From Escherichia coli (GTDB taxonomy: Bacteria > Pseudomonadota > Gammaproteobacteria > Enterobacterales > Enterobacteriaceae): 64,000 nt of DNA. This document shows, piece by piece, positions 9,280-25,097 of this stretch. The DNA lies in assembly GCF_016026235.1 (NCBI RefSeq), contig NZ_CP065613.1. The stretch is one strand, 5' to 3'. Made by a program: the position numbers and the translations under genes. Numbering within the stretch: position 1 is the stretch's first letter; every line of letters begins with the position of its first letter. The notes beneath the pieces are model-generated. The model was not told the origin of the DNA, did no database searches, and saw only the letters and a program-made list of their open reading frames with translations.

Positions 9280-10571
9280 TGAGGGATCCCCAGAAAATTT
9301 AGTAAACCATTATCATATTGGTATACCGTTGCTGTAGAACTTTCAGCCCTGCGTCAAGTGACAGTGTGTTTAGTATGAGTGGAGAATGTCGAATCACATT
9401 CTCCGCCAGTTTTAATAACGAGATGACTCGCCTGTGCTTCACTGTATTTGCCTGATATTTATGATGTATCCCTTTGTTTTCCAGGCTGAAACCGCTTAAC
9501 CACATAATGATACTGGCTAATGTTGCGATCAGACTCAATACCGTGACCCGCCCGGATGAATGACTGGCACCAAACCGTAGTCCAAATCCCCAGCGAGGAT
9601 TTTTTTCATCCCTGAAATTTTGCTCAATTTGCATTCTACGGCTGTATAATTTCATTACCTGTTTTGGCGAGAACTCAGTACTGTTTGTGAAAATAAACCA
9701 TGGTGATTTCCCGGCAGTACGAGCTTTAGCCGTCACCGATGGTCTGGTTGCTCTTTCCTTCGAGCGTTTAAATCTACGACCTTTAGGCTTACTTTTATAA
9801 AGATAAAAATGCCCTTCATGTTGTGCATTTTTATCTCGACCCAGCAGGCCTTCACCTAAATAAATTGCTGTCGTTGATGCTTTTGTGCCTGAGTCCGACA
9901 CCTTTTCCCAGCCATTACCAACATTGTAATAATGATTGCCCAGTACCCGGCAAATATAGGTCCAGCCACGGGAGCGGAGCTGTTGGAACCATCGCCCCTG
10001 AAAACCGGCATCTGTAATAACAATGACATCAGTCCCGGGGGAAAAGCACTCAGCAAGCGATTCCAGAAAACGCTCATGTACATCTGCATTCGCTGTCTGT
10101 GATGATGGAACGACACAACTCATCAACGGTAAAGAACGCCCGTCACATGCCAGGCTTGCCCGCAAAAGCTGAAAACGAGAGGCATGATAAGCACTCCAGT
10201 CAATGAGTATCACAACACGAGACATTCCCCGCGTAATCTTTTGGGTAATTCGCTGAAAAATGGTGGAAACCTCATTTTGCAAATGTCGATTCCCCAACAG
10301 TCGATCCACCCGCTTTATTTTGTTTTTAACTGATGCCGTACCGGTTAAATGACGCCCGATACTGGTAAGTGTGAGGGAAGCGCCATTTATTACAGCATTA
10401 GTTGCGTCAATCAGTGATTTTTGACGGTAAAGATGCAAAGGGGCCAGTATATTGTTAAGGAAATTTTGGCATAATGAACGTGCAGGCATAGTGGTGATCT
10501 CCTTGAAATTGTTAGCACAATCAATTAGATCACATCTCACTATGCCTGTCTTGTTTTCTGGGGATTCCTCA
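9280..10571 (-). mobile_element. IS4-family (IS10-like) insertion sequence, about 1.29 kb, apparently intact
   Basis: Terminal inverted repeats TGAGGGATCCCCAGAAAA (9280-9297) and TGAGGAATCCCCAGAAAA (reverse complement of 10554-10571), 17/18 match; single transposase ORF; flanked by 12-bp direct repeats. Confidence 0.85.
9299..10489 (-). CDS. DDE transposase, IS4 family (IS10-like)
   Basis: ORF 9299-10594 extends beyond the IS end, so start placed at internal MPARSL (10489) preceded by AAGGAG; motifs KIKRVDRLLGNRHL, ITDAGF, YSRRMQIEQNFRDEK, HKYQANTVKHRRV parallel the IS10 transposase as recalled. Confidence 0.85.
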   Translation of the reverse strand: MPARSLCQNFLNNILAPLHLYRQKSLIDATNAVINGASLTLTSIGRHLTGTASVKNKIKRVDRLLGNRHLQNEVSTIFQRITQKITRGMSRVVILIDWSAYHASRFQLLRASLACDGRSLPLMSCVVPSSQTANADVHERFLESLAECFSPGTDVIVITDAGFQGRWFQQLRSRGWTYICRVLGNHYYNVGNGWEKVSDSGTKASTTAIYLGEGLLGRDKNAQHEGHFYLYKSKPKGRRFKRSKERATRPSVTAKARTAGKSPWFIFTNSTEFSPKQVMKLYSRRMQIEQNFRDEKNPRWGFGLRFGASHSSGRVTVLSLIATLASIIMWLSGFSLENKGIHHKYQANTVKHRRVISLLKLAENVIRHSPLILNTLSLDAGLKVLQQRYTNMIMVY

Positions 10572-10583
10572 GAGGATTTCTCC
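10572..10583. repeat. Target-site duplication (right) of the IS element: GAGGATTTCTCC
   Basis: Identical to 9268-9279. Confidence 0.75.
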
Positions 10584-10616
10584 GGGGTTTGCATTGATTA
10601 GTTGATTTAAATCAGA

Positions 10617-12023
10617 TTAATCCAGCCATTCGGTATGGAACACACCTTCTTTATCAATGCGCTTATAAGTATGTGCACCGAAATAGTCACGCTGTGCCTG
10701 GATCAGGTTCGCAGGAAGAACAGCGGCGCGGTAGCTGTCATAATAGGCAACCGCAGCGGCGAAGGTCGGAACCGGGATACCGTTCTGTACCGCATAAGCG
10801 ACGACATCGCGCAGCGCCTGCTGGTAGTCATCGGCAATTTGCTTGAAATACGGAGCCAGCAGCAGGTTAGCGATCTGCGGATTTTCGGCATAAGCATCGG
10901 TGATTTTCTGCAGGAACTGCGCACGGATAATGCAGCCAGCACGGAAAATCTTCGCGATTTCGCCATAGTTCAGATCCCAGTTGTACTCTTCAGACGCAGC
11001 ACGCAACTGAGAGAAGCCCTGGGCGTAAGAAACGATTTTGCCCAGATACAGAGCACGACGAACTTTTTCGATGAACTCAGCCTTGTCGCCTGCTGGCTGC
11101 GCTTGCGGACCAGACAGTACTTTGGACGCGGCAACACGCTGCTCTTTCAGAGAAGAGATGTATCGTGCAAACACAGACTCGGTAATGAGCGACAGCGGTT
11201 CACCGAGATCTAGCGCGCTTTGGCTGGTCCATTTACCGGTACCTTTGTTAGCCGCTTCATCCAGAATCACATCAACCAGGTAGTTACCGTCTTCATCTTT
11301 TTTAGTGAAGATGTCTTTGGTGATGTCGATCAGGTAGCTGCTTAGTTCACCATTATTCCACTCGGTAAAGGTCTGCGCCAGTTCATCGTTGGTGAGGTTC
11401 AGGCCACCTTTAAGCAGAGAATAGGCTTCAGCAATCAGCTGCATATCTCCGTATTCAATACCGTTGTGAACCATCTTCACATAGTGACCTGCGCCATCGG
11501 CACCAATATAGGTAACACATGGCTCCCCATCTTCAGCCACTGCGGCGATTTTGGTCAGGATCGGTGCGACCAGTTCATAGGCTTCTTTCTGGCCACCAGG
11601 CATGATGGAAGGTCCTTTCAGCGCACCTTCTTCGCCACCAGAAACACCGCTACCGATAAAGTTAAAGCCTTCTGCAGACAGCTCACGGTTACGACGAATG
11701 GTGTCCAGGAAGAAAGTGTTACCACCATCAATGATGATGTCACCTTTATCGAGGTATGGCTTGAGAGAATCAATAGCAGCATCCGTGCCTGCACCTGCTT
11801 TCACCATTAACAGGATGCGACGAGGCGTTTCCAGAGATTCAACAAACTCTTTTATTGTATAGTAAGGAAATAACTTCTTATCCGAATGAGTAGCTATAAT
11901 TTTTTCTGTTTTTTCACGAGAACGGTTAAAAATTGAAACAGTATAGCCGTGACTTTCGATATTTAGTGCAAGATTACGCCCCATTACCGCCATACCGATA
12001 ACCCCAATCTGTTTTTTTGACAT
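10617..12023 (-). CDS. gnd: 6-phosphogluconate dehydrogenase (decarboxylating)
   Basis: ORF 10617-12029; start placed at [21 protein letters not shown]; ends ...GVFHTEWLD. Confidence 0.95.
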
Positions 12024-12874
12024 TTTCACTCCTATTTAATTAGCAGAATAATAAACGTATTGAAACACATATAAAAATATGTCATATGGAAAATATTGCA
12101 TTAAGACAAACAACAGATAATTGTATATGTAATTAAACTTATATTAAATTAATTACAGAAAATACTCAAAACTAACGTTGCTCTCCACACTCTAGTTTCC
12201 AGTGTCTCAGACTAACTATTATTAATAGTCTCCGCGATATATAAGAGATTTAACTGCCATGCCTCAAATATATCTTTCAACTCACTTACATTTTATAAAT
12301 TACAATAATCGAGAGTCAAATTATCAACCTCAAAATAATTTTGACAAACAACGAGGCTGTTGGTGTTTCCAGAATACTCAAATTGGTTCTATTCGTCATA
12401 TGTACTAAAACCTTAAAGCCAATGAAATATATCTTATCACAGTCATCTAATAACCATATGATAGCCACCAATGAATTTAGAAAAAATAAAACTTAAGACT
12501 GTTCCTGACTCTGAAATTTTATACAGCACAAATAATGCAATGAACTATTCTATACTTTTAAGTAAAATAAAGACAATCTTTATCATAATACTAAGTTCAT
12601 TCGCACCAATTAACCTCAGAATTCATTTCAATGATAACTAAAGGCTTTATAAAAATAATTCTTCAGGAGAGGCACTTGGTAAACATAATTTTACTAAATA
12701 GATTGCAGATTATAATCTGATACAAAAACATTAATCACACTTCTTGTCCACACAGACCCACATTTCCCTATTCTATTGAAATTCACTTAAAACTCATCCA
12801 TGACATCATCAAATATAAAAATACATTTGCAAATCAAAAGCATTATCCAATATTTCTTTATAAGATTTGCCGAA

Positions 12875-13678
12875 TTATCTCCAAGAGGCAAAGTGGCGCT
12901 TAAAAAACAAACACAGCGGATTTATATGATGTTTGGCAACAGCATTAACAGCATAGTGGGAGAAATAATAAAGAGATTTAAACAGACCAAACTTTAAATA
13001 TTTCCTGTAAAAGGCCCATTGTGAAAATATTATTTTTAATTTATTTGACGAGAGTGTATCGGTGCCTACTCGATAATAGGCCAGTGTTTCGTTCAAACAA
13101 TATGCATAATCAATTTTATCTAAAATGCTCAGCCATAGTGCCATGTCCTGTCTTTTCCTGATTGTTGGCATAAACATTTTACCAAGAGATGAAGTATCAT
13201 ATACAGCTGTCAAGCAACCTATTACATTAGTCTTTAATAATTCAGAATAATTAACTTTAGAAACAGGATTAATTTGGGATAAAAGTTTCCCGCTAAAACT
13301 AACCTTTTGATATGAGGTATAAGTGAAAGCATAATTATTTGAAAGCATAAAGTCTATCTGTTTTTTTATTTTCTCTTTATGCCAAAAATCATCACTATCT
13401 AAAAAAGCGATAAACCGACCTTTAGCTTTACTGATCGCTATATTTCTTGACATACCAGCCCCATAATTCTTCTCATTTGAAATGAGAACAACTCTTGAAT
13501 CTTTTTTTTGATATTCCCTGCAAATAGACACTGTATTATCTGACGAACAATCATCGACAATAATCATTTCTATATTATTATATGATTGAGATAGAACAGA
13601 ATCAATTGTACATCTAATCGTTCTTTCAGAATTATATGTGGGTGTTATGACTGAAACTAAATATTTATCGGTACTCAT
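12875..13678 (-). CDS. Glycosyltransferase, family 2 (last gene of O-antigen cluster)
   Basis: 267 aa; ITPTYNSERTI ... VDDCSSD ... FLDSDD motifs typical of GT-A fold GT2 enzymes; AT-rich. Confidence 0.8.
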   Translation of the reverse strand: MSTDKYLVSVITPTYNSERTIRCTIDSVLSQSYNNIEMIIVDDCSSDNTVSICREYQKKDSRVVLISNEKNYGAGMSRNIAISKAKGRFIAFLDSDDFWHKEKIKKQIDFMLSNNYAFTYTSYQKVSFSGKLLSQINPVSKVNYSELLKTNVIGCLTAVYDTSSLGKMFMPTIRKRQDMALWLSILDKIDYAYCLNETLAYYRVGTDTLSSNKLKIIFSQWAFYRKYLKFGLFKSLYYFSHYAVNAVAKHHINPLCLFFKRHFASWR

Positions 13679-13837
13679 AGAATCATCTCAAACTTACATA
13701 AGTTTCATTATATAATGTCATGTTTATCATATCCATCCTTGGTAGCTTATTAAGAAATTTCACATATTAAATATTTATCAAGTATTTCATTAACATCCCA
13801 CCTTAATATAAAAAGCCGTTAATTAAGAGAGTAACTA

Positions 13838-13937
13838 CAAAGCAAAGCAAAGCAAAGCAAAGCAAAGCAAAGCAAAGCAAAGCAAAGCAAAGCAAAGCAA
13901 AGCAAAGCAAAGCAAAGCAAAGCAAAGCAAAGCAAAG
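13838..13937. repeat. Pentanucleotide microsatellite (GCAAA)x20 on + strand, (TTTGC)x20 in the operon direction
   Basis: Perfect tandem array visible at 13838-13937, between gne (ends 13989) and the GT2 gene (starts 13678). Confidence 0.95.
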
Positions 13938-13988
13938 ATGGTTTTATAAAAATATTGACAGTGAATAAAATAGCACATTAAAATCGTC

Positions 13989-15002
13989 TTATTTATATCC
14001 TTTGGGATTGTTTTTTTGCCAACGCCAAGAATCAATTATCATTGTATCTAAATCATATCGAGAAGACCACCCTAATTCTAAAAATGCTAGAGATGGATCA
14101 GACCAACATTCAGCTATATCACCAACTCGACGAGGTTTGAAACAATAAGGGATATCAATTCCAGTACAACGTTTAAAGGTATTTATCACATCAAGAACTG
14201 AATAACCAACCCCTGTACCAAGATTATATACTTTATAATTTCCCCCAAAATTACGGTGTTCTAAAGCAGCTATGTGCCCTTCAGCCAAATCCATAACATG
14301 AATATAATCTCTAATGCCTGTTCCATCAGGTGTAGGATAATCATTTCCGAATACTGATAAATATTTTAGATTACCAATAGCCACTTGAGTAATATAAGGA
14401 ATTAAATTATTTGGAACACCATTAGGATCTTCGCCTAATAGACCAGAAGAGTGGGCTCCTACAGGATTGAAATAACGCAAAATAGTAATACGCATTGTTG
14501 GCTCAGCCAAAGCTATATCCTTCAAAACCCTCTCTACTATAAGTTTTGAAAAGCCATATGGATTAGTTGTTCCGCCAACGCTACTATCTTCCTTCAAAGG
14601 AATAGTTTCAGGCTTACCATACACTGTTGCGGAGGAGCTAAAAATAAAACTAATAACGCCAGCGCGCATCATTTCTTCAAGTAAAACAATAGTTCCGTTA
14701 ACATTGTGATCATAATATTCCAATGGATTTGAAACAGATTCAGCGACGGCTTTTAATCCTGCAAAATGAATAACATCTGTAATATCATGATACTGGAAAA
14801 TATGTTTGAGTTTTTTCCTATCACGCACATCACCATGATAAAATAGAGGCCTACGTCCACAAATTTTTTCGACCCTTTCTAACGACTTAGACGATGAGTT
14901 CGATAGATTATCCAACACCACCACATTTTTTCCGTATGATAATAAGGATAATACAGTATGTGAACCAATGTAACCTGCACCACCAGTAACCAAAATAGTC
15001 AT
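13989..15002 (-). CDS. gne: UDP-hexose 4-epimerase, GalE family (probably UDP-GlcNAc 4-epimerase Gne)
   Basis: 337 aa; LVTGGAGYIGSH ... HFAGLKAVAESV ... YxxxK context; GalE-family SDR inside an O-antigen cluster. Substrate (UDP-Glc versus UDP-GlcNAc) cannot be decided from sequence by eye. Confidence 0.8.
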   Translation of the reverse strand: MTILVTGGAGYIGSHTVLSLLSYGKNVVVLDNLSNSSSKSLERVEKICGRRPLFYHGDVRDRKKLKHIFQYHDITDVIHFAGLKAVAESVSNPLEYYDHNVNGTIVLLEEMMRAGVISFIFSSSATVYGKPETIPLKEDSSVGGTTNPYGFSKLIVERVLKDIALAEPTMRITILRYFNPVGAHSSGLLGEDPNGVPNNLIPYITQVAIGNLKYLSVFGNDYPTPDGTGIRDYIHVMDLAEGHIAALEHRNFGGNYKVYNLGTGVGYSVLDVINTFKRCTGIDIPYCFKPRRVGDIAECWSDPSLAFLELGWSSRYDLDTMIIDSWRWQKNNPKGYK

Positions 15003-15348
15003 AAAACTCCTTATATTTCATCTATCTGCCTAGGATATAAAACAAGAATATAAACACATTATAAATAGTATAAACTGTGAAAGAATAAAAATTTAGAATA
15101 GTTAAGCCCAATGTTACTATAAAAATACAATATGCAAGTATACGTTATTTTTCTAAACATCTCGACATATTGTATGAGTCTAACACTATATTGCATTTTT
15201 TTCGTGTAAATTATGTTCTAGTGGTGTCAGTAATTCGAGCAATTTATGAGGCCTTTTATTCTTGTACAGTATGCAATATTGAGCCTGTTTATGATTGACA
15301 TATTCAGATTTTCAAAGAGCAATTCTTCATTAAACTCAATAAACGGCT

Positions 15349-15634
15349 ATCTCAGTGATCGGTTAAAGCGCTCACAGATGGTGTTCATTTTCGGCGTATC
15401 GAGATAAGCCTATTGGTGCCTGATAGCGGCTTCCTGTAGCTTTTTGTCAAATTTTCCCAGGAACTCTTCCCCATAATCGGGTATATTCTGGTTGATTCCA
15501 ACAGGTAACAACCGAGCTTGATGGCAGAAGAAACTCATGATTACATCACTGTTAAGCGACGTTACCGCCACCGCCAAAGCGTAGTTGCTGCGTTCGTCAA
15601 TCACGGTAATAACATAACGCCGATTCTGAGCTCA
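15349..15634 (-). pseudogene. Remnant of an rve-type (integrase-core DDE) transposase gene, frameshifted and truncated
   Basis: Minus-strand frames give ...RRYVITVIDERSNYALAVAV... (VIDxxSR-like first catalytic-D region) and, in another frame, ...PKMNTICERFNRSLR* (xERFNRxL C-terminal integrase-core motif); local G+C looks higher than the surrounding cluster. Confidence 0.45.
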
Positions 15635-15944
15635 ATATAAGCTCACCGGTCTTTAGCGGGCTAATAGTACCTTGGACTTGAAGTCTGGGAACCCAGTTAC
15701 ACCAGTATTAGCCACATTTTATCATGTGCTGCCTAGCTCATTCCTCCAATAGTGGAGACGCTCGGGCAGGCCAAATGCTACTGTTCACACTACAGATTCA
15801 GACGGTCAAAAATCTGTTCTTTTCCAAGGTTGAGAAGTCCTATTCTAATTCATCATATTTCTTTCAAAATTTCTGGATGTCATAGTTTTGTAAGACATAC
15901 TAGAAAGATTTACTACTTGAGATAAGCACTTCCGAGCCTATATA

Positions 15945-16307
15945 TTAAACGCGTATTGATACACAAAAATTTTCTGCGGATGCATTGATTCCATGTCTTT
16001 CCCTAAAATGCAGGGTTTTCATTCTTAATTTTGCAATATCAGGCATGGCATTGTATTCCATCGCATAGATTGTTGCACGGTAATGCCCGAAACACCTGAC
16101 GCCGATATGTTGGTTCAACATAACAATCTCTCCTTTCTTATCTGGAGACAATTGCAACATCTCTGAAAACTTACACTCTGCCCATCGTGTACATAACCAA
16201 AGACAACAGAAATATGTCACGCCTTTTTCCAAATTCCAATTTATATTCCTTACTCTTATAACACAAGGAGTATCTGAATATATAAGAGTGAAGGAGTGCT
16301 TTGGCAA
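15945..16307 (-). CDS. Hypothetical protein or gene fragment of unknown function
   Basis: 120-aa ORF in the decayed segment between gne and wzy; no recognisable motifs; may be a remnant. Confidence 0.25.
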   Translation of the reverse strand: MPKHSFTLIYSDTPCVIRVRNINWNLEKGVTYFCCLWLCTRWAECKFSEMLQLSPDKKGEIVMLNQHIGVRCFGHYRATIYAMEYNAMPDIAKLRMKTLHFRERHGINASAENFCVSIRV

Positions 16308-16752
16308 AAATATTTAATTCAAAGATATAAAACACAATCGATTTAGTATCAAAAGATTACTCAGTAATCTTTCACCAAATAAATTAGTTCAAAATAACAC
16401 TACAGCAATGGCAATAAAACCATTCCATGAAATAGCAACATAAACACGCAAATAGAATTTCCACGTAAATTTATAACACTTACCAATCCAAAACATTATT
16501 TATTATAGATTGTATTCATGGGATTATCACCTGGTTCAGTTATAGATTTGTGATCTATGTAGTTCACTATTCTTACAGTTCTCAAAAAACTTAAATTAAA
16601 TTGTTGCGCTATTACCCTATAGTCTTTAAATACCCATAAAAACAAAGGCAAAAACCAATTTGTTTTACAGATATCTAGAATAAGATAATATGTCAACAAT
16701 TAACAAGTTACTACTATTGTTTGTTAATAAAAACCTGCAATTAAAATAATAA

Positions 16753-18015
16753 TCATGCATTAACCGAACCCCTTCTTATTAATCTTTTTTTATGACAAAT
16801 ATAAAAAGATGAAAATATATATATATATATTATTTTCATATATGCAACATTCAAAAATATAACCTCGCCTTTATAATGAAAAGAAAAACTGAGTATCGTA
16901 ATCATTAATACAACTATTTTAGGTTTGATGCTATTAGCAGCATAAATAGTCAAAAAAATAAAAAATAAAAAATAAAAAATAACCGATGGTACCGCACCCA
17001 AAAATAATGCTAACCGCATAAATCCAGCATCGGTCCCGAGATAATATGTCCCATCCTTTAACGTATAGTACCCATCACCAATGAAGATCTGTTTTTCTGT
17101 TAACGGAAAATACATATTAAATAATGCATCTGTAGATGTTGTTGATAACTTTCCTGAATCTAAATAATAATATAACATTTGAAAAGAATAATCCGAATAT
17201 TTTTTCAAGATATCATAAACATGTTCATTTAAAAAAAATCTCCAAAAAATAAATAAAAACAGAGATACATAAATCAAAATTTGAAGCGCCCGATAAAACT
17301 TCTTTTTATAATCAGAGCAAATAAAACTATATACCCCTCCGAGGACAAACCCCAAAACAGCCGTACGCCCAGCAGAAATTGACGCGAACAGCAAGAGTAT
17401 GATAAAAAATAATTTAAAAAAGAAAGGAATATTACAGTCTTCCTCATTAAACCAAACAATTGAAAGAAAAGATAATAATGACATAATTATAGCAAGACCA
17501 AAGGCAACAGAACCTGATATACCTAATCCCCTGATGCCTCCATATGTATTACTCATAAATTCTATTTCTTCTTTTGTTCTAATAATACTTTGAATATAAG
17601 CATTTATACTGGGAAAAAACATCATCAGAATAATAAAAAAGGATTGTAAGAGGGCAATTAGAAAAAACAATTTCAACACATTATCATTGTTATGCTGGAT
17701 TAAGTGCGACGCAATTATAACAGAGCTGAATAATGCAGCGAAATTATTAAAGATAACCCCCATGATAGATAAATCTCCTGTACCATTTAATACCAATGAA
17801 ATACAAGAAAAAAAGAGCATGCAGGCCAAAGACAAAAACGCAATAAAAAATATTCTTGTACTTATTAGACTAAAAAAAACAGTCCTTATCCTGATATTTG
17901 TAATTAAATAAATCAAGGAGAAAATATATATAAGATAGCCTGAATTAAAAAAAACAGGGATGCTAAAAGCAAACACAAATAAAAACAACAAAAATACATC
18001 AAAAAAAACCTTCAT
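16753..18015 (-). CDS. wzy: O-antigen polymerase
   Basis: 420 aa, highly hydrophobic multi-TM protein with a larger hydrophilic loop, adjacent to glycosyltransferases and wzx; identity as Wzy is by elimination (the other polytopic protein has the Wzx pattern). Confidence 0.7.
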   Translation of the reverse strand: MKVFFDVFLLFLFVFAFSIPVFFNSGYLIYIFSLIYLITNIRIRTVFFSLISTRIFFIAFLSLACMLFFSCISLVLNGTGDLSIMGVIFNNFAALFSSVIIASHLIQHNNDNVLKLFFLIALLQSFFIILMMFFPSINAYIQSIIRTKEEIEFMSNTYGGIRGLGISGSVAFGLAIIMSLLSFLSIVWFNEEDCNIPFFFKLFFIILLLFASISAGRTAVLGFVLGGVYSFICSDYKKKFYRALQILIYVSLFLFIFWRFFLNEHVYDILKKYSDYSFQMLYYYLDSGKLSTTSTDALFNMYFPLTEKQIFIGDGYYTLKDGTYYLGTDAGFMRLALFLGAVPSVIFYFLFFIFLTIYAANSIKPKIVVLMITILSFSFHYKGEVIFLNVAYMKIIYIYIFSSFYICHKKRLIRRGSVNA

Positions 18016-19127
18016 AAAAATTCCTTTTGTGACACGACCCGATAATAAATATCAACCATACGCTTTGTGTTTTTATTTATATCAAACATTTTTATTATTG
18101 TATCTCGGTTATATTCAATCGAACACCTATATTGATTACTATCTATTAATTTCACACACCTTGAAAAAACAGATTTCATGTCAATATCATCATGCAGATT
18201 CAAATACATTGCATGATTTCCTAATAGCTCTCTGTTTGCATCGATGTCTGATACTATCGGAAAACAATTACATAAAACGCCCTCCATTAAAGATAATGGA
18301 GCACCATCATTGCTAGGAATACTAAGAACAAAATCAGATTTATGAAGAATCGACCTTAATTCCTCTTTTTGAATAAACCCTATTAAATTTACTTTATAAT
18401 TATCTCCCTCACATTTTTTTGTGAGTTCTATTATCTTATCATGTGTGGTCTTTGACGATGAGCGGCCTAGTATATTGATATTAAAAAAGTACCCTTTACA
18501 ATCATAATCTTTCATATCAATAACAGCTTCTAAAAAGGACTCTATGTTATAAATATTATCCCAATTTCTTACAGAAGTTATTGTTATACATTTATCGTCC
18601 CTTATGCTTGACGTTTTTTCATCTGAAAAGAACCCCACATCTACACCATATTGAAAAGTATGTATTCGCTCCTGATTCACATTGAAATACGATATTATTT
18701 TATTTGTTATATGCTTGGCGGGTGAATTTACAACACAAAAACTTTTCATTGCTTTTACATATATTTTTCCTAATATCCCTCTCTTTTTTATAGTATTGTT
18801 AATGTCACTTCCCCATACTGAGAGTATCTTCTTTACTTTTCTAGGCAAAACACATGAAATTAAACCATAAGAACTAAAAAAATGGACATGAACCAACTCA
18901 GGCTTTAATAAAAAAAAATAAAAAAGAAGAAAAACAGGTGCGTATATAAAATCAAATTTAGTTTTTGTAAGTCTTGGTATCTTATATATCTCTCCTATTC
19001 CAACATTCTCAGAAATACTTTTGTCATAGTGTAGTGTGACAATTCTATAATCAATATATTCTTTGGAACCATGAATCCAGTTACTAATATGACCAGATAT
19101 CATAGGGCCAAAAACAAGTACTCTCAT
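18012..19127 (-). CDS. Glycosyltransferase, GT-B fold (GT4 / family 1 type)
   Basis: 371 aa; C-terminal E-x7-E-like region ...LSLMEGVLCNCFPIVSD...; overlaps neighbours by 4 bp. Confidence 0.75.
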   Translation of the reverse strand: MRVLVFGPMISGHISNWIHGSKEYIDYRIVTLHYDKSISENVGIGEIYKIPRLTKTKFDFIYAPVFLLFYFFLLKPELVHVHFFSSYGLISCVLPRKVKKILSVWGSDINNTIKKRGILGKIYVKAMKSFCVVNSPAKHITNKIISYFNVNQERIHTFQYGVDVGFFSDEKTSSIRDDKCITITSVRNWDNIYNIESFLEAVIDMKDYDCKGYFFNINILGRSSSKTTHDKIIELTKKCEGDNYKVNLIGFIQKEELRSILHKSDFVLSIPSNDGAPLSLMEGVLCNCFPIVSDIDANRELLGNHAMYLNLHDDIDMKSVFSRCVKLIDSNQYRCSIEYNRDTIIKMFDINKNTKRMVDIYYRVVSQKEFL

Positions 19128-20017
19128 TTTTTCCCCATTCGTTTTCTTAAATTTAAATAATAATTTTTAGCATGGAGTGGAGACAACCACCCAATACATT
19201 TCCCCACAATATTGTGCTTGATTTTTATTGATTCAATGACAGAGAATAAAAAAAACTCAACTGAAAAGTTGGTTGCATTAAATAAATGAATAGGTGCAAC
19301 TTCATTTTTTCTGAAAAATTTAGATAAAATAGTCTTGTTTTTTATTTGGATAAACTTCTTACAACTGCCAATTGAGCCATGCCTTATCCTATAAAATAAA
19401 ACCACGTCATCTATATTCCTTACAATACATCCACTCAATACAGCCCTACACAAAAAATCATAATCTTGAGCAGCATCTAAACGCCTGTAACCACCTAATT
19501 TATAATAAAGCTCTGACCTTAACAACCAAGTTGGATGAATTATTTCATTCCCCCACGAAAAATCTACTGGGTTCATATTAAAATAATCCCTAACAACATT
19601 ATCGTTCTCATCAATAACAACAGCCTGTCCACCGACTAAACTGACATCAGAATGCTTATTCAGATATTCTAATTGCTTTTTAAAACGCCCGTTAATAACA
19701 ATATCATCAGCATCCATTCTGGCAATAAAATCATAGCCATTACACGCGCCAAAAATTAATTTATTTAAACTTGCCGCCAACCCTTCGTTCTCATTAAAAA
19801 AAACAACGCACACATCATTTCTGGCACTAACTTCTTTTAAATATAAACTCTCAACATGAGGAATATCTTCATTTCTCCTATCGACTCCAATTATTAATTT
19901 ATATTTCACATTCTTCTTTTCCAATCTTTCCAGATCCTGAAGAGTACTGTCTACTGCCTTTTTTAGTATTATGTAACTCTCATTATAGTAAGTCATGATT
20001 ACAGCAAGTTTTTGCAT
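19124..20017 (-). CDS. Glycosyltransferase, family 2
   Basis: ORF 19124-20143; start placed at internal MQKLAVIMTYYNE (typical GT2 N-terminus); DAD/DxD-like motif RMDADD. Confidence 0.75.
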   Translation of the reverse strand: MQKLAVIMTYYNESYIILKKAVDSTLQDLERLEKKNVKYKLIIGVDRRNEDIPHVESLYLKEVSARNDVCVVFFNENEGLAASLNKLIFGACNGYDFIARMDADDIVINGRFKKQLEYLNKHSDVSLVGGQAVVIDENDNVVRDYFNMNPVDFSWGNEIIHPTWLLRSELYYKLGGYRRLDAAQDYDFLCRAVLSGCIVRNIDDVVLFYRIRHGSIGSCKKFIQIKNKTILSKFFRKNEVAPIHLFNATNFSVEFFLFSVIESIKIKHNIVGKCIGWLSPLHAKNYYLNLRKRMGKK

Positions 20018-24800: not shown

Positions 24801-24839
24801 CACGCTACCGCCCCTGGCTTTACAGCTACCAGAGCACTG
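24801..24839 (-). promoter_or_regulatory. 39-bp JUMPStart element with ops (GGCGGTAGCGTG) antitermination site upstream of the O-antigen operon
   Basis: + strand reads cacgctaccgcccctggctttacagctaccagagcactg, the reverse complement of the JUMPStart consensus as recalled; ops 12-mer at 24801-24812. Confidence 0.85.
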
Positions 24840-25097
24840 CATGCATGCCTACGATGTGACGAGCGTTACCCACTCGCGCTAAACCCGAAAAATTCAAACG
24901 CTAATTGTCTTACCAATCCGCTCTGGAAACAAGGAAAATCCTGGAAAACTTTGACGAAAATCCTATTGCTAACTCTTTGTTATTCTGATTGTTTATATAA
25001 AACAACGGCAGGAATATTCGCAACAAATTACCTTCGCCGCAAATCTTCACAGCCGTTATAATTTTCTTATCAACCGTTACATCCGGTCAGATTTTCA

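Follow-up and report, generated by a model that had tools for sequence, protein, structure and literature searches.

The O-antigen gene cluster of the Escherichia coli contig NZ_CP065613.1 (assembly GCF_016026235.1) occupies the minus strand from galF to gnd (10617-12029) in the 64,000-nucleotide stretch analysed here, hereafter the window. Between the stop of wzy (16753) and the start of the epimerase gene gne (15002) there is a gap of 1750 bp (15003-16752) without an intact gene, which was shown to be dead DNA: a pseudogenised insertion sequence (IS) of the IS481 family, set between AT-rich flanks without detectable coding or RNA-family content. The gap probably marks the site where gne was spliced into an older gene module. 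Taken as a whole, the explanation that we consider probable joins a gap of dead IS DNA, an insertion that brought in gne, a scar of that recruitment, an element that is inert today and expression of the genes beyond it by read-through.

The gap and its boundaries comprise the following features:

16753..18015, minus strand: wzy, intact, 420 aa, the upstream boundary of the gap, named 'O143 family' by the Prokaryotic Genome Annotation Pipeline (PGAP)
16177..16752, minus strand: wzy-proximal orphan non-coding flank, 576 bp, 28% G+C
15171..16176 (read from 16176 to 15171), minus strand: remnant of an IS481-family IS, 1006 bp, 5'-GTGTAAG...CATACA-3', 40% G+C, in operon orientation
16149..16176, minus strand: left terminal inverted repeat, matching the left repeat (IRL) of the ISKpn28 group with 3 mismatches
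15201..16121, minus strand: transposase pseudogene, corresponding to residues 1-335 of 359
15171..15197, minus strand: right terminal inverted repeat (AATGCAATATAGTGTTAGACTCATACA), aligning with the right ends of ISKpn28, the pHNSHP24-2 copy and the copy L041
15003..15170, minus strand: gne-proximal orphan flank, 168 bp, 24% G+C, which holds the gne Shine-Dalgarno sequence

The list of open reading frames (ORFs) agrees with the preliminary description of this region in finding no intact gene in the gap, where the three longest ORFs encode 120, 67 and 64 aa. The deviating base composition that had been remarked on there is also real, with 40% G+C in the IS remnant against 24-28% in its flanks, 36% in gne and about 30% in the 5' block and module of the cluster.

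The ends of the element (5'-GTGTAAGTT...CATACA-3') were fixed by alignment to ISKpn28, the pHNSHP24-2 copy and the intact L041 copy (protein P0206). Both align base for base with the ends of the intact relatives, which are 1091-1094 bp long, indicating that the terminal inverted repeats are present; the IRL pattern has a single match in the 64-kb window, with 0 expected by chance. In a tblastn search with the ISKpn28 transposase (359 aa, from a Klebsiella plasmid), the alignment of residues 1-335 with 16121->15201 was spread over three frames (52-63% identity; composite E = 1e-75), and by blastn the segment 16176-15168 aligned with plasmid-borne IS481-family copies from E. coli, E. albertii and Klebsiella. 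The sole Pfam domain detected in the pseudogene was rve_3. The best NCBIfam family was NF033577 (IS481; E = 2.9e-21), with a score of 76 bits that falls under the 224-bit cut-off, as expected of a pseudogene, while intact ISKpn28 reaches 235 bits and passes it.

The transposase pseudogene is interrupted by 10 in-frame stops and changes frame at least 4 times. Compared with both aligned relatives, the remnant has undergone seven deletions (24, 1, 36, 13, 10, 1 and 4 nt, 89 nt in total) and two 1-nt insertions. The 13-nt deletion, at ~15637, takes out the GMDA motif, which we take to be the site of the first catalytic Asp in rve/DDE cores; the DNG-type and CERF motifs survive. The remnant thus has neither an intact transposase ORF nor the complete catalytic triad of an active element. 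Over aligned bases it is 81-82% identical to its closest copies, L004 and L041, and 68% identical to ISKpn28, and the nearest relatives of its repaired translation in a collection of 5.8 billion proteins were all IS481-family transposases of Klebsiella or E. coli, at no more than 61% identity. No copy at 85% identity or above was found in 5426 complete E. coli genomes or in PLSDB. Because of the stops, frame changes and deletions, and since no close copy was found, the remnant is, judged from its sequence, an old and dead member of the ISKpn28 group.

A degraded rve-type transposase inside the O-antigen operon had been proposed for this region in the preliminary description, and the tblastn alignment, the IS481 family assignment and the 10 stops bear this out: the remnant lies in sense orientation within the operon, and the ISKpn28 alignment covers the segment 15349-15634, for which transposase similarity had been predicted. 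The two peptides quoted as evidence (VITVIDERSNYALAVAV and PKMNTICERFNRSLR, the latter followed by a stop) are both encoded on the minus strand, as stated, but in the same frame with one stop between them and not in different frames; further transposase pieces, beyond these two, do lie in other frames. The 120-aa ORF at 15945-16307 had been taken for an orphan without motifs. Instead, its last 58 codons are the N-terminus of the transposase, from Met 16121 onward, which gene callers report as a 58-aa ORF, and the 62 codons before these read through the flank and the leader of the IS. In practice, neither the 58-aa nor the 120-aa ORF should be treated as a gene.

The place of the gap in the history of the cluster was read from related clusters, found through Wzy, the sole module gene that was searched database-wide. 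The next-closest Wzy proteins after those of the same type are 46% and 42% identical, and the best relatives are non-enterobacterial or metagenome-derived. The clusters that encode these two proteins, L015 from a Logan assembly (metagenome) and L018 from Gallaecimonas pentaromativorans, are collinear with the E. coli cluster over nine genes, at 35-69% amino-acid identity, in the order pyridoxal-phosphate (PLP) aminotransferase, HAD hydrolase, ATP-grasp amidoligase, hexapeptide acyltransferase, wzx, family 2 glycosyltransferase (GT2), family 4 glycosyltransferase (GT4), wzy and a second GT2. Wzy homologues of Proteus, Providencia and ERR3144296 were rejected as syntenic relatives, as they sit in different clusters, and a scan of genome contigs with the ATP-grasp alignment gave relatives at 33-39% identity that were not used.

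The distance from wzy to the last GT2 gene is 74 bp in L015 and 14 bp in L018, as opposed to 3074 bp in the window. Synteny thereby marks 13679-16752 (~3.07 kb) as an insertion into the nine-gene module between wzy and the terminal GT2 gene. In operon order it holds the 576-bp flank, followed by the IS with the 168-bp flank behind it, and then gne and a 310-bp spacer. The part of this region beyond the gap consists of:

13989..15002, minus strand: gne, a gne/galE-type UDP-hexose 4-epimerase gene (NCBIfam GalE, 460 bits), in the inserted stretch
13679..13988, minus strand: gne-to-GT2 spacer, 310 bp, with a perfect (CTTTG)20 repeat at 13838-13937 (Tandem Repeats Finder)
12875..13678, minus strand: terminal GT2 glycosyltransferase gene, orthologue of the gene directly after wzy in the relatives

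The product of the terminal GT2 gene is 40-41% identical to those of L015 10314-11066 and L018 10317-11069. Since this gene directly follows wzy in both relatives, gne belongs to the insertion and GT2 to the old module. The IS had been described as splitting the operon into a 5' block and a 3' block composed of gne and GT2, a division that is not supported, because the only two syntenic relatives found place GT2 14-74 bp after wzy. The comparison with related clusters lacking the insert, which had been suggested as a check, led to the same result: at the wzy-GT2 junction L015 and L018 have neither the IS nor gne. The Gallaecimonas cluster does contain a 60%-identical epimerase gene, located elsewhere and further downstream.

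The inserted parts also differ from the module in their relatives and base composition, which speaks for a separate origin: the closest non-self proteins to the gne product are GalE proteins of Enterobacterales (65-71% identity), and the IS finds its best relatives among elements of Klebsiella and E. coli. Compared with other E. coli gne genes the nucleotide identity is ~66% at best. A donor of gne among E. coli O-antigen clusters was rejected on this basis, proteins found elsewhere reaching 70-71% identity.

The sequences bordering the IS remnant, GGCAGA and ATATGT, match at 1 of 6 positions, so that no target-site duplication is present, in contrast to the perfect 6-bp duplications of intact relatives (AGTTCT in L041 and CCTCCT in ISKpn28). 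A match of 1/6 or lower would have a chance of ~0.01-0.02 (hand calculation) if each copy of a duplication had diverged by up to 18%, the difference between the remnant and its nearest relative. The lack of a target duplication suggests that the sequences to the left and right of the IS have at no time adjoined each other, and a rearrangement junction is therefore preferred over a simple insertion. We propose that the IS is the scar of an illegitimate, IS-associated event by which the cluster acquired gne, and that its decay would have followed this recruitment. The selective reason follows from established knowledge: gne supplies UDP-GalNAc, which E. coli is not known to make otherwise. GalNAc is a constituent of the O143 O-unit, which relies on the gne in the cluster, and O143 is listed among the gne-carrying serogroups (PMC7685785).

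Expression across the gap was considered from the operon leader, where one further feature is located:

24803..24841, minus strand: JUMPStart with ops element (GGCGGTAG at 24805-24812), in the operon leader, upstream of the cluster

This JUMPStart (CAGTGCTCTGGTAGCTGTAAAGCCAGGGGCGGTAGCGTG, at 24841-24803) has the canonical 39 bp including ops, which makes read-through a reasonable idea. No terminator-like sites were detected on either strand of 12000-18100, where 2.7 were expected, and gne and GT2 are intact in all copies of the cluster. We infer that gne and GT2 would be transcribed by read-through from the JUMPStart promoter, with RfaH, loaded at ops, suppressing Rho-dependent polarity over the 1.75 kb untranslated stretch. 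Translation of gne would start from its own strong Shine-Dalgarno sequence (AAGGAG at 15012-15007), read 4 bases upstream of the ATG. The IS element itself appears to be inert today, without a present function.

The model of the preliminary description amounts to a simple late insertion, in which the IS entered an already existing wzy-gne spacer and decayed there, without a role in the assembly of the cluster. The presence of both IS ends and the lack of any other IS trace in the window fit this model, and the heavy decay of the IS would make decay of the flanks plausible too. It has to do without the target duplication that intact relatives possess in perfect form, and removal of the IS would leave orphan spacers of 744 bp between wzy and gne and 310 bp between gne and GT2, compared to 14-74 bp in the relatives, so that a separate, unexplained insertion of gne plus junk would be needed anyway; we hold this model to be rather unlikely. 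The flanks could also be, one or both, what is left of a glycosyltransferase, acetyltransferase or other biosynthetic gene that the IS destroyed. Such remnants count among the recognised anomalies of E. coli O-antigen clusters, and the gene content of O143 does not exactly match its structure, with one glycosyltransferase above expectation (PMC7685785). The flanks themselves gave no sign of such a gene. Beyond the 4 genomes with the same cluster, the 576-bp flank has no DNA similarity in the 5426 E. coli genomes and it resembles nothing in L015 or L018; DNA searches with the 168-bp flank matched nothing outside the same cluster type. When the six frames of 16176-16752 were translated, concatenated and compared by phmmer with 1.84 billion representative proteins, the search recovered nothing but a 60-aa ORF call from this very sequence, on which account a hidden gene remnant in the 576-bp flank was rejected. 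When all proteins of L015 and L018 were compared with 12000-16800 by tblastn, gne and GT2 alone were detected and the flanks remained empty, and in the relatives GT2 comes directly after wzy, with no gene in between. A lost gene is accordingly scarcely credible.

Another explanation would give the gap a present use, the IS fossil or its flanks providing an internal promoter or an RNA element for gne and GT2. IS481-family ends in Bordetella are able to create outward promoters, and promoter-like hexamers do occur on the operon strand of the gap, but their number is that of chance (36, versus 33 +/- 7 in shuffled sequence), and an Rfam search gave no RNA family match at E <= 1. The length of the gap is invariant in all copies, which says little, since the copies compared are >99.4% identical overall. 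The IS remnant also has a low polymorphism, with 1 variable site in its 1006 bp out of 59 found over 12.3 kb of the cluster among 18 haplotypes, against ~4.8 expected from the cluster-wide density (hand Poisson P ~0.05). As 30 of the 59 sites fall on one branch, for which the IS has 0 observed versus 2.5 expected, not a significant difference, the deficit is marginal, and purifying selection on the remnant is not claimed; it might stem from a recombination patch or from mutation with an AT bias. We regard a regulatory spacer of this kind as very unlikely. Slighter still is the chance that the IS, the flanks and the (CTTTG)n tract were co-opted together as a tunable control region for gne and GT2, independent of the RfaH-driven promoter; if true, O143 enteroinvasive E. 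coli (EIEC) and Shigella boydii would have a heritable, fast-mutating dial on their O-antigen output.

Recruitment of gne through an IS-associated event, followed by expression through RfaH-assisted read-through, is our preferred explanation, and several points weigh against it. There are just two syntenic relatives, both distant (Wzy 42-46% identical), and the wzy-GT2 order could be the derived one in L015 and L018, though these differ from each other elsewhere in the cluster. A donor of gne, the IS or the flanks above 82% identity was not found. No second copy or fragment of the IS was detected in the 64-kb window, either by low-stringency blastn with three IS copies or with the inverted-repeat pattern; a composite-transposon route to gne therefore left no direct trace, and a composite transposon or IS-flanked cassette around gne was rejected. 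The target duplication could have been lost through small deletions at the IS ends rather than through rearrangement. Concerning expression, promoter-like hexamers, at chance density, lie on the minus strand at 16530-16502, 15165-15137 and 15074-15047, and C-rich, G-poor stretches within the IS (15193-15556) are candidate sites of Rho loading, in which case RfaH would become relevant.

The same 1750 bp were found in 4 of the 5426 complete E. coli genomes, at 99.5-99.6% identity. In every contig with this Wzy or close variants the distance between wzy and gne is exactly 1750 bp; among them are E. coli contigs from two haplogroups as well as S. boydii contigs, of which one is a complete chromosome. 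An insert-free form was sought among all E. coli and Shigella carriers of this wzy, and none was found. PGAP names wzx and wzy 'O143 family' in genomes that are 99.4-99.6% identical over the region, and the 90%-identity Wzy cluster holds proteins of both E. coli and S. boydii, O143 presumably corresponding to S. boydii type 8.

In the same-cluster genomes, strain D10 among them, PGAP annotates a pseudogene in the gap as 'integrase core domain-containing protein; frameshifted; internal stop'. The IS pseudogene is thus already annotated in RefSeq and is an ordinary, recognised kind of scar: mobile elements, gene remnants and non-coding regions are common anomalies of O-antigen clusters and signs of past rearrangement (PMC7685785; PMC4379981). 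What is added here is the exact IS family with its boundaries, a new assignment for the orphan ORF and a synteny-based case for the IS and gne as one inserted block. PGAP also flags wzy of strain D10 (L001, NZ_CP010157.1, 10738-11819) as 'frameshifted'. This was rejected, as the frame is open over 420 codons, without indels relative to the window, and 92-100% of the wzy product aligns collinearly with homologues of 412-450 aa; the flag is probably spurious, an artefact of the reference protein used.

The remnant resembles the ISKpn28 group in its transposase, collinear from Met1 to about residue 335, in its termini (GTGTAAGTT...CCATACA), in its size class (~1.09 kb when intact) and in having IS481 as its best NCBIfam family. 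It differs in a nucleotide identity of only 68% (ISKpn28) to ~82% (closest copies), in the 89 nt, the first catalytic-Asp motif and the reading frame that it has lost, with 10 stops and frameshifts, and in lacking a target-site duplication. Another degraded member of the same IS group is known from the espL2/nleB region of enterohaemorrhagic and enteropathogenic E. coli (EHEC/EPEC) chromosomes (L002 and L003). It is ~78% identical to the window copy over ~375-410 nt, but is a different, shorter fragment in an effector-island locus, with no link to O-antigen genes; as an annotated pseudogene it was present in ~600 E. coli genomes, where it matches 15242-15619 and lies amid other IS debris.

Among the anomalies of O-antigen clusters described by Liu et al. 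2019 (PMC7685785) and Iguchi et al. 2015 (PMC4379981), the gap is comparable to other IS-derived non-coding stretches within galF-gnd, and IS-associated replacement at the gnd-proximal end of the cluster has been described (PMC7685785; PMC4379981). Unlike those cases, the IS in the window is a deep fossil and not an intact IS629, ISEc11 or IS1, and it accompanies one nucleotide-sugar gene (gne) between wzy and the last glycosyltransferase gene. With the long polysaccharide operons controlled by RfaH and ops, the cluster shares a canonical 39-bp JUMPStart with ops in its leader and, within the operon, a long stretch without translation at which polarity would otherwise be likely to arise.

Variation along the region is uneven. 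Per kb there is 1 variable site in the IS, the lowest value of the region, 2 in gne, ~6 in GT2, ~8 in wzy and 10-18 in the flanks, and 10 variable sites crowd into 16232-16966. The (CTTTG)20 repeat of the gne-to-GT2 spacer begins, in operon orientation, 51 nt past the stop of gne, and from its end ~160 nt remain to the ATG of the last glycosyltransferase gene. Among clusters of >99.4% identity its copy numbers are 11, 12, 16, 19, 20, 22, 23, 25, 26 and 58, and complete E. coli genomes imply more alleles. A hypervariable simple-sequence repeat beside a lipopolysaccharide (LPS) glycosyltransferase gene is unusual for E. coli. Several short-read contigs stop inside the repeat, and it should be kept in mind that short-read assemblies break at this pentanucleotide.

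A second orphan non-coding stretch lies between the terminal GT2 gene and gnd (12030-12874; 845 bp, 28% G+C) and was found just in the four complete genomes with the same cluster. Remnants of ugd or wecA, the genes that follow GT2 in L015 and L018, were not detected by tblastn of the cluster proteins against 12000-16800. In the gnd-ugd spacer there is an intact ISEc60-like element of the IS4 family at ~9280-10571 (ORF 9299-10594, minus strand), present in this strain only. D10 lacks it; there, a 12-bp overlap between the two flanking blast segments suggests a target duplication. Near-identical copies are found at multiple places in strains such as CFSAN029787. In a complete S. boydii genome (L042, CP026797.1), a 1-base deletion at the window-equivalent position 19554 breaks up the first GT2 gene, leaving two ORFs (158 and 143 aa), which is either a real inactivation or a sequencing error.

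The IS scar itself is of little import, and its modest value lies in showing, along with the synteny to Gallaecimonas-type clusters, how the O143 / S. boydii cluster was assembled: a complete amidated-uronic-acid O-unit module of non-enterobacterial type would have gained a gne of enterobacterial type through an IS-associated insertion.

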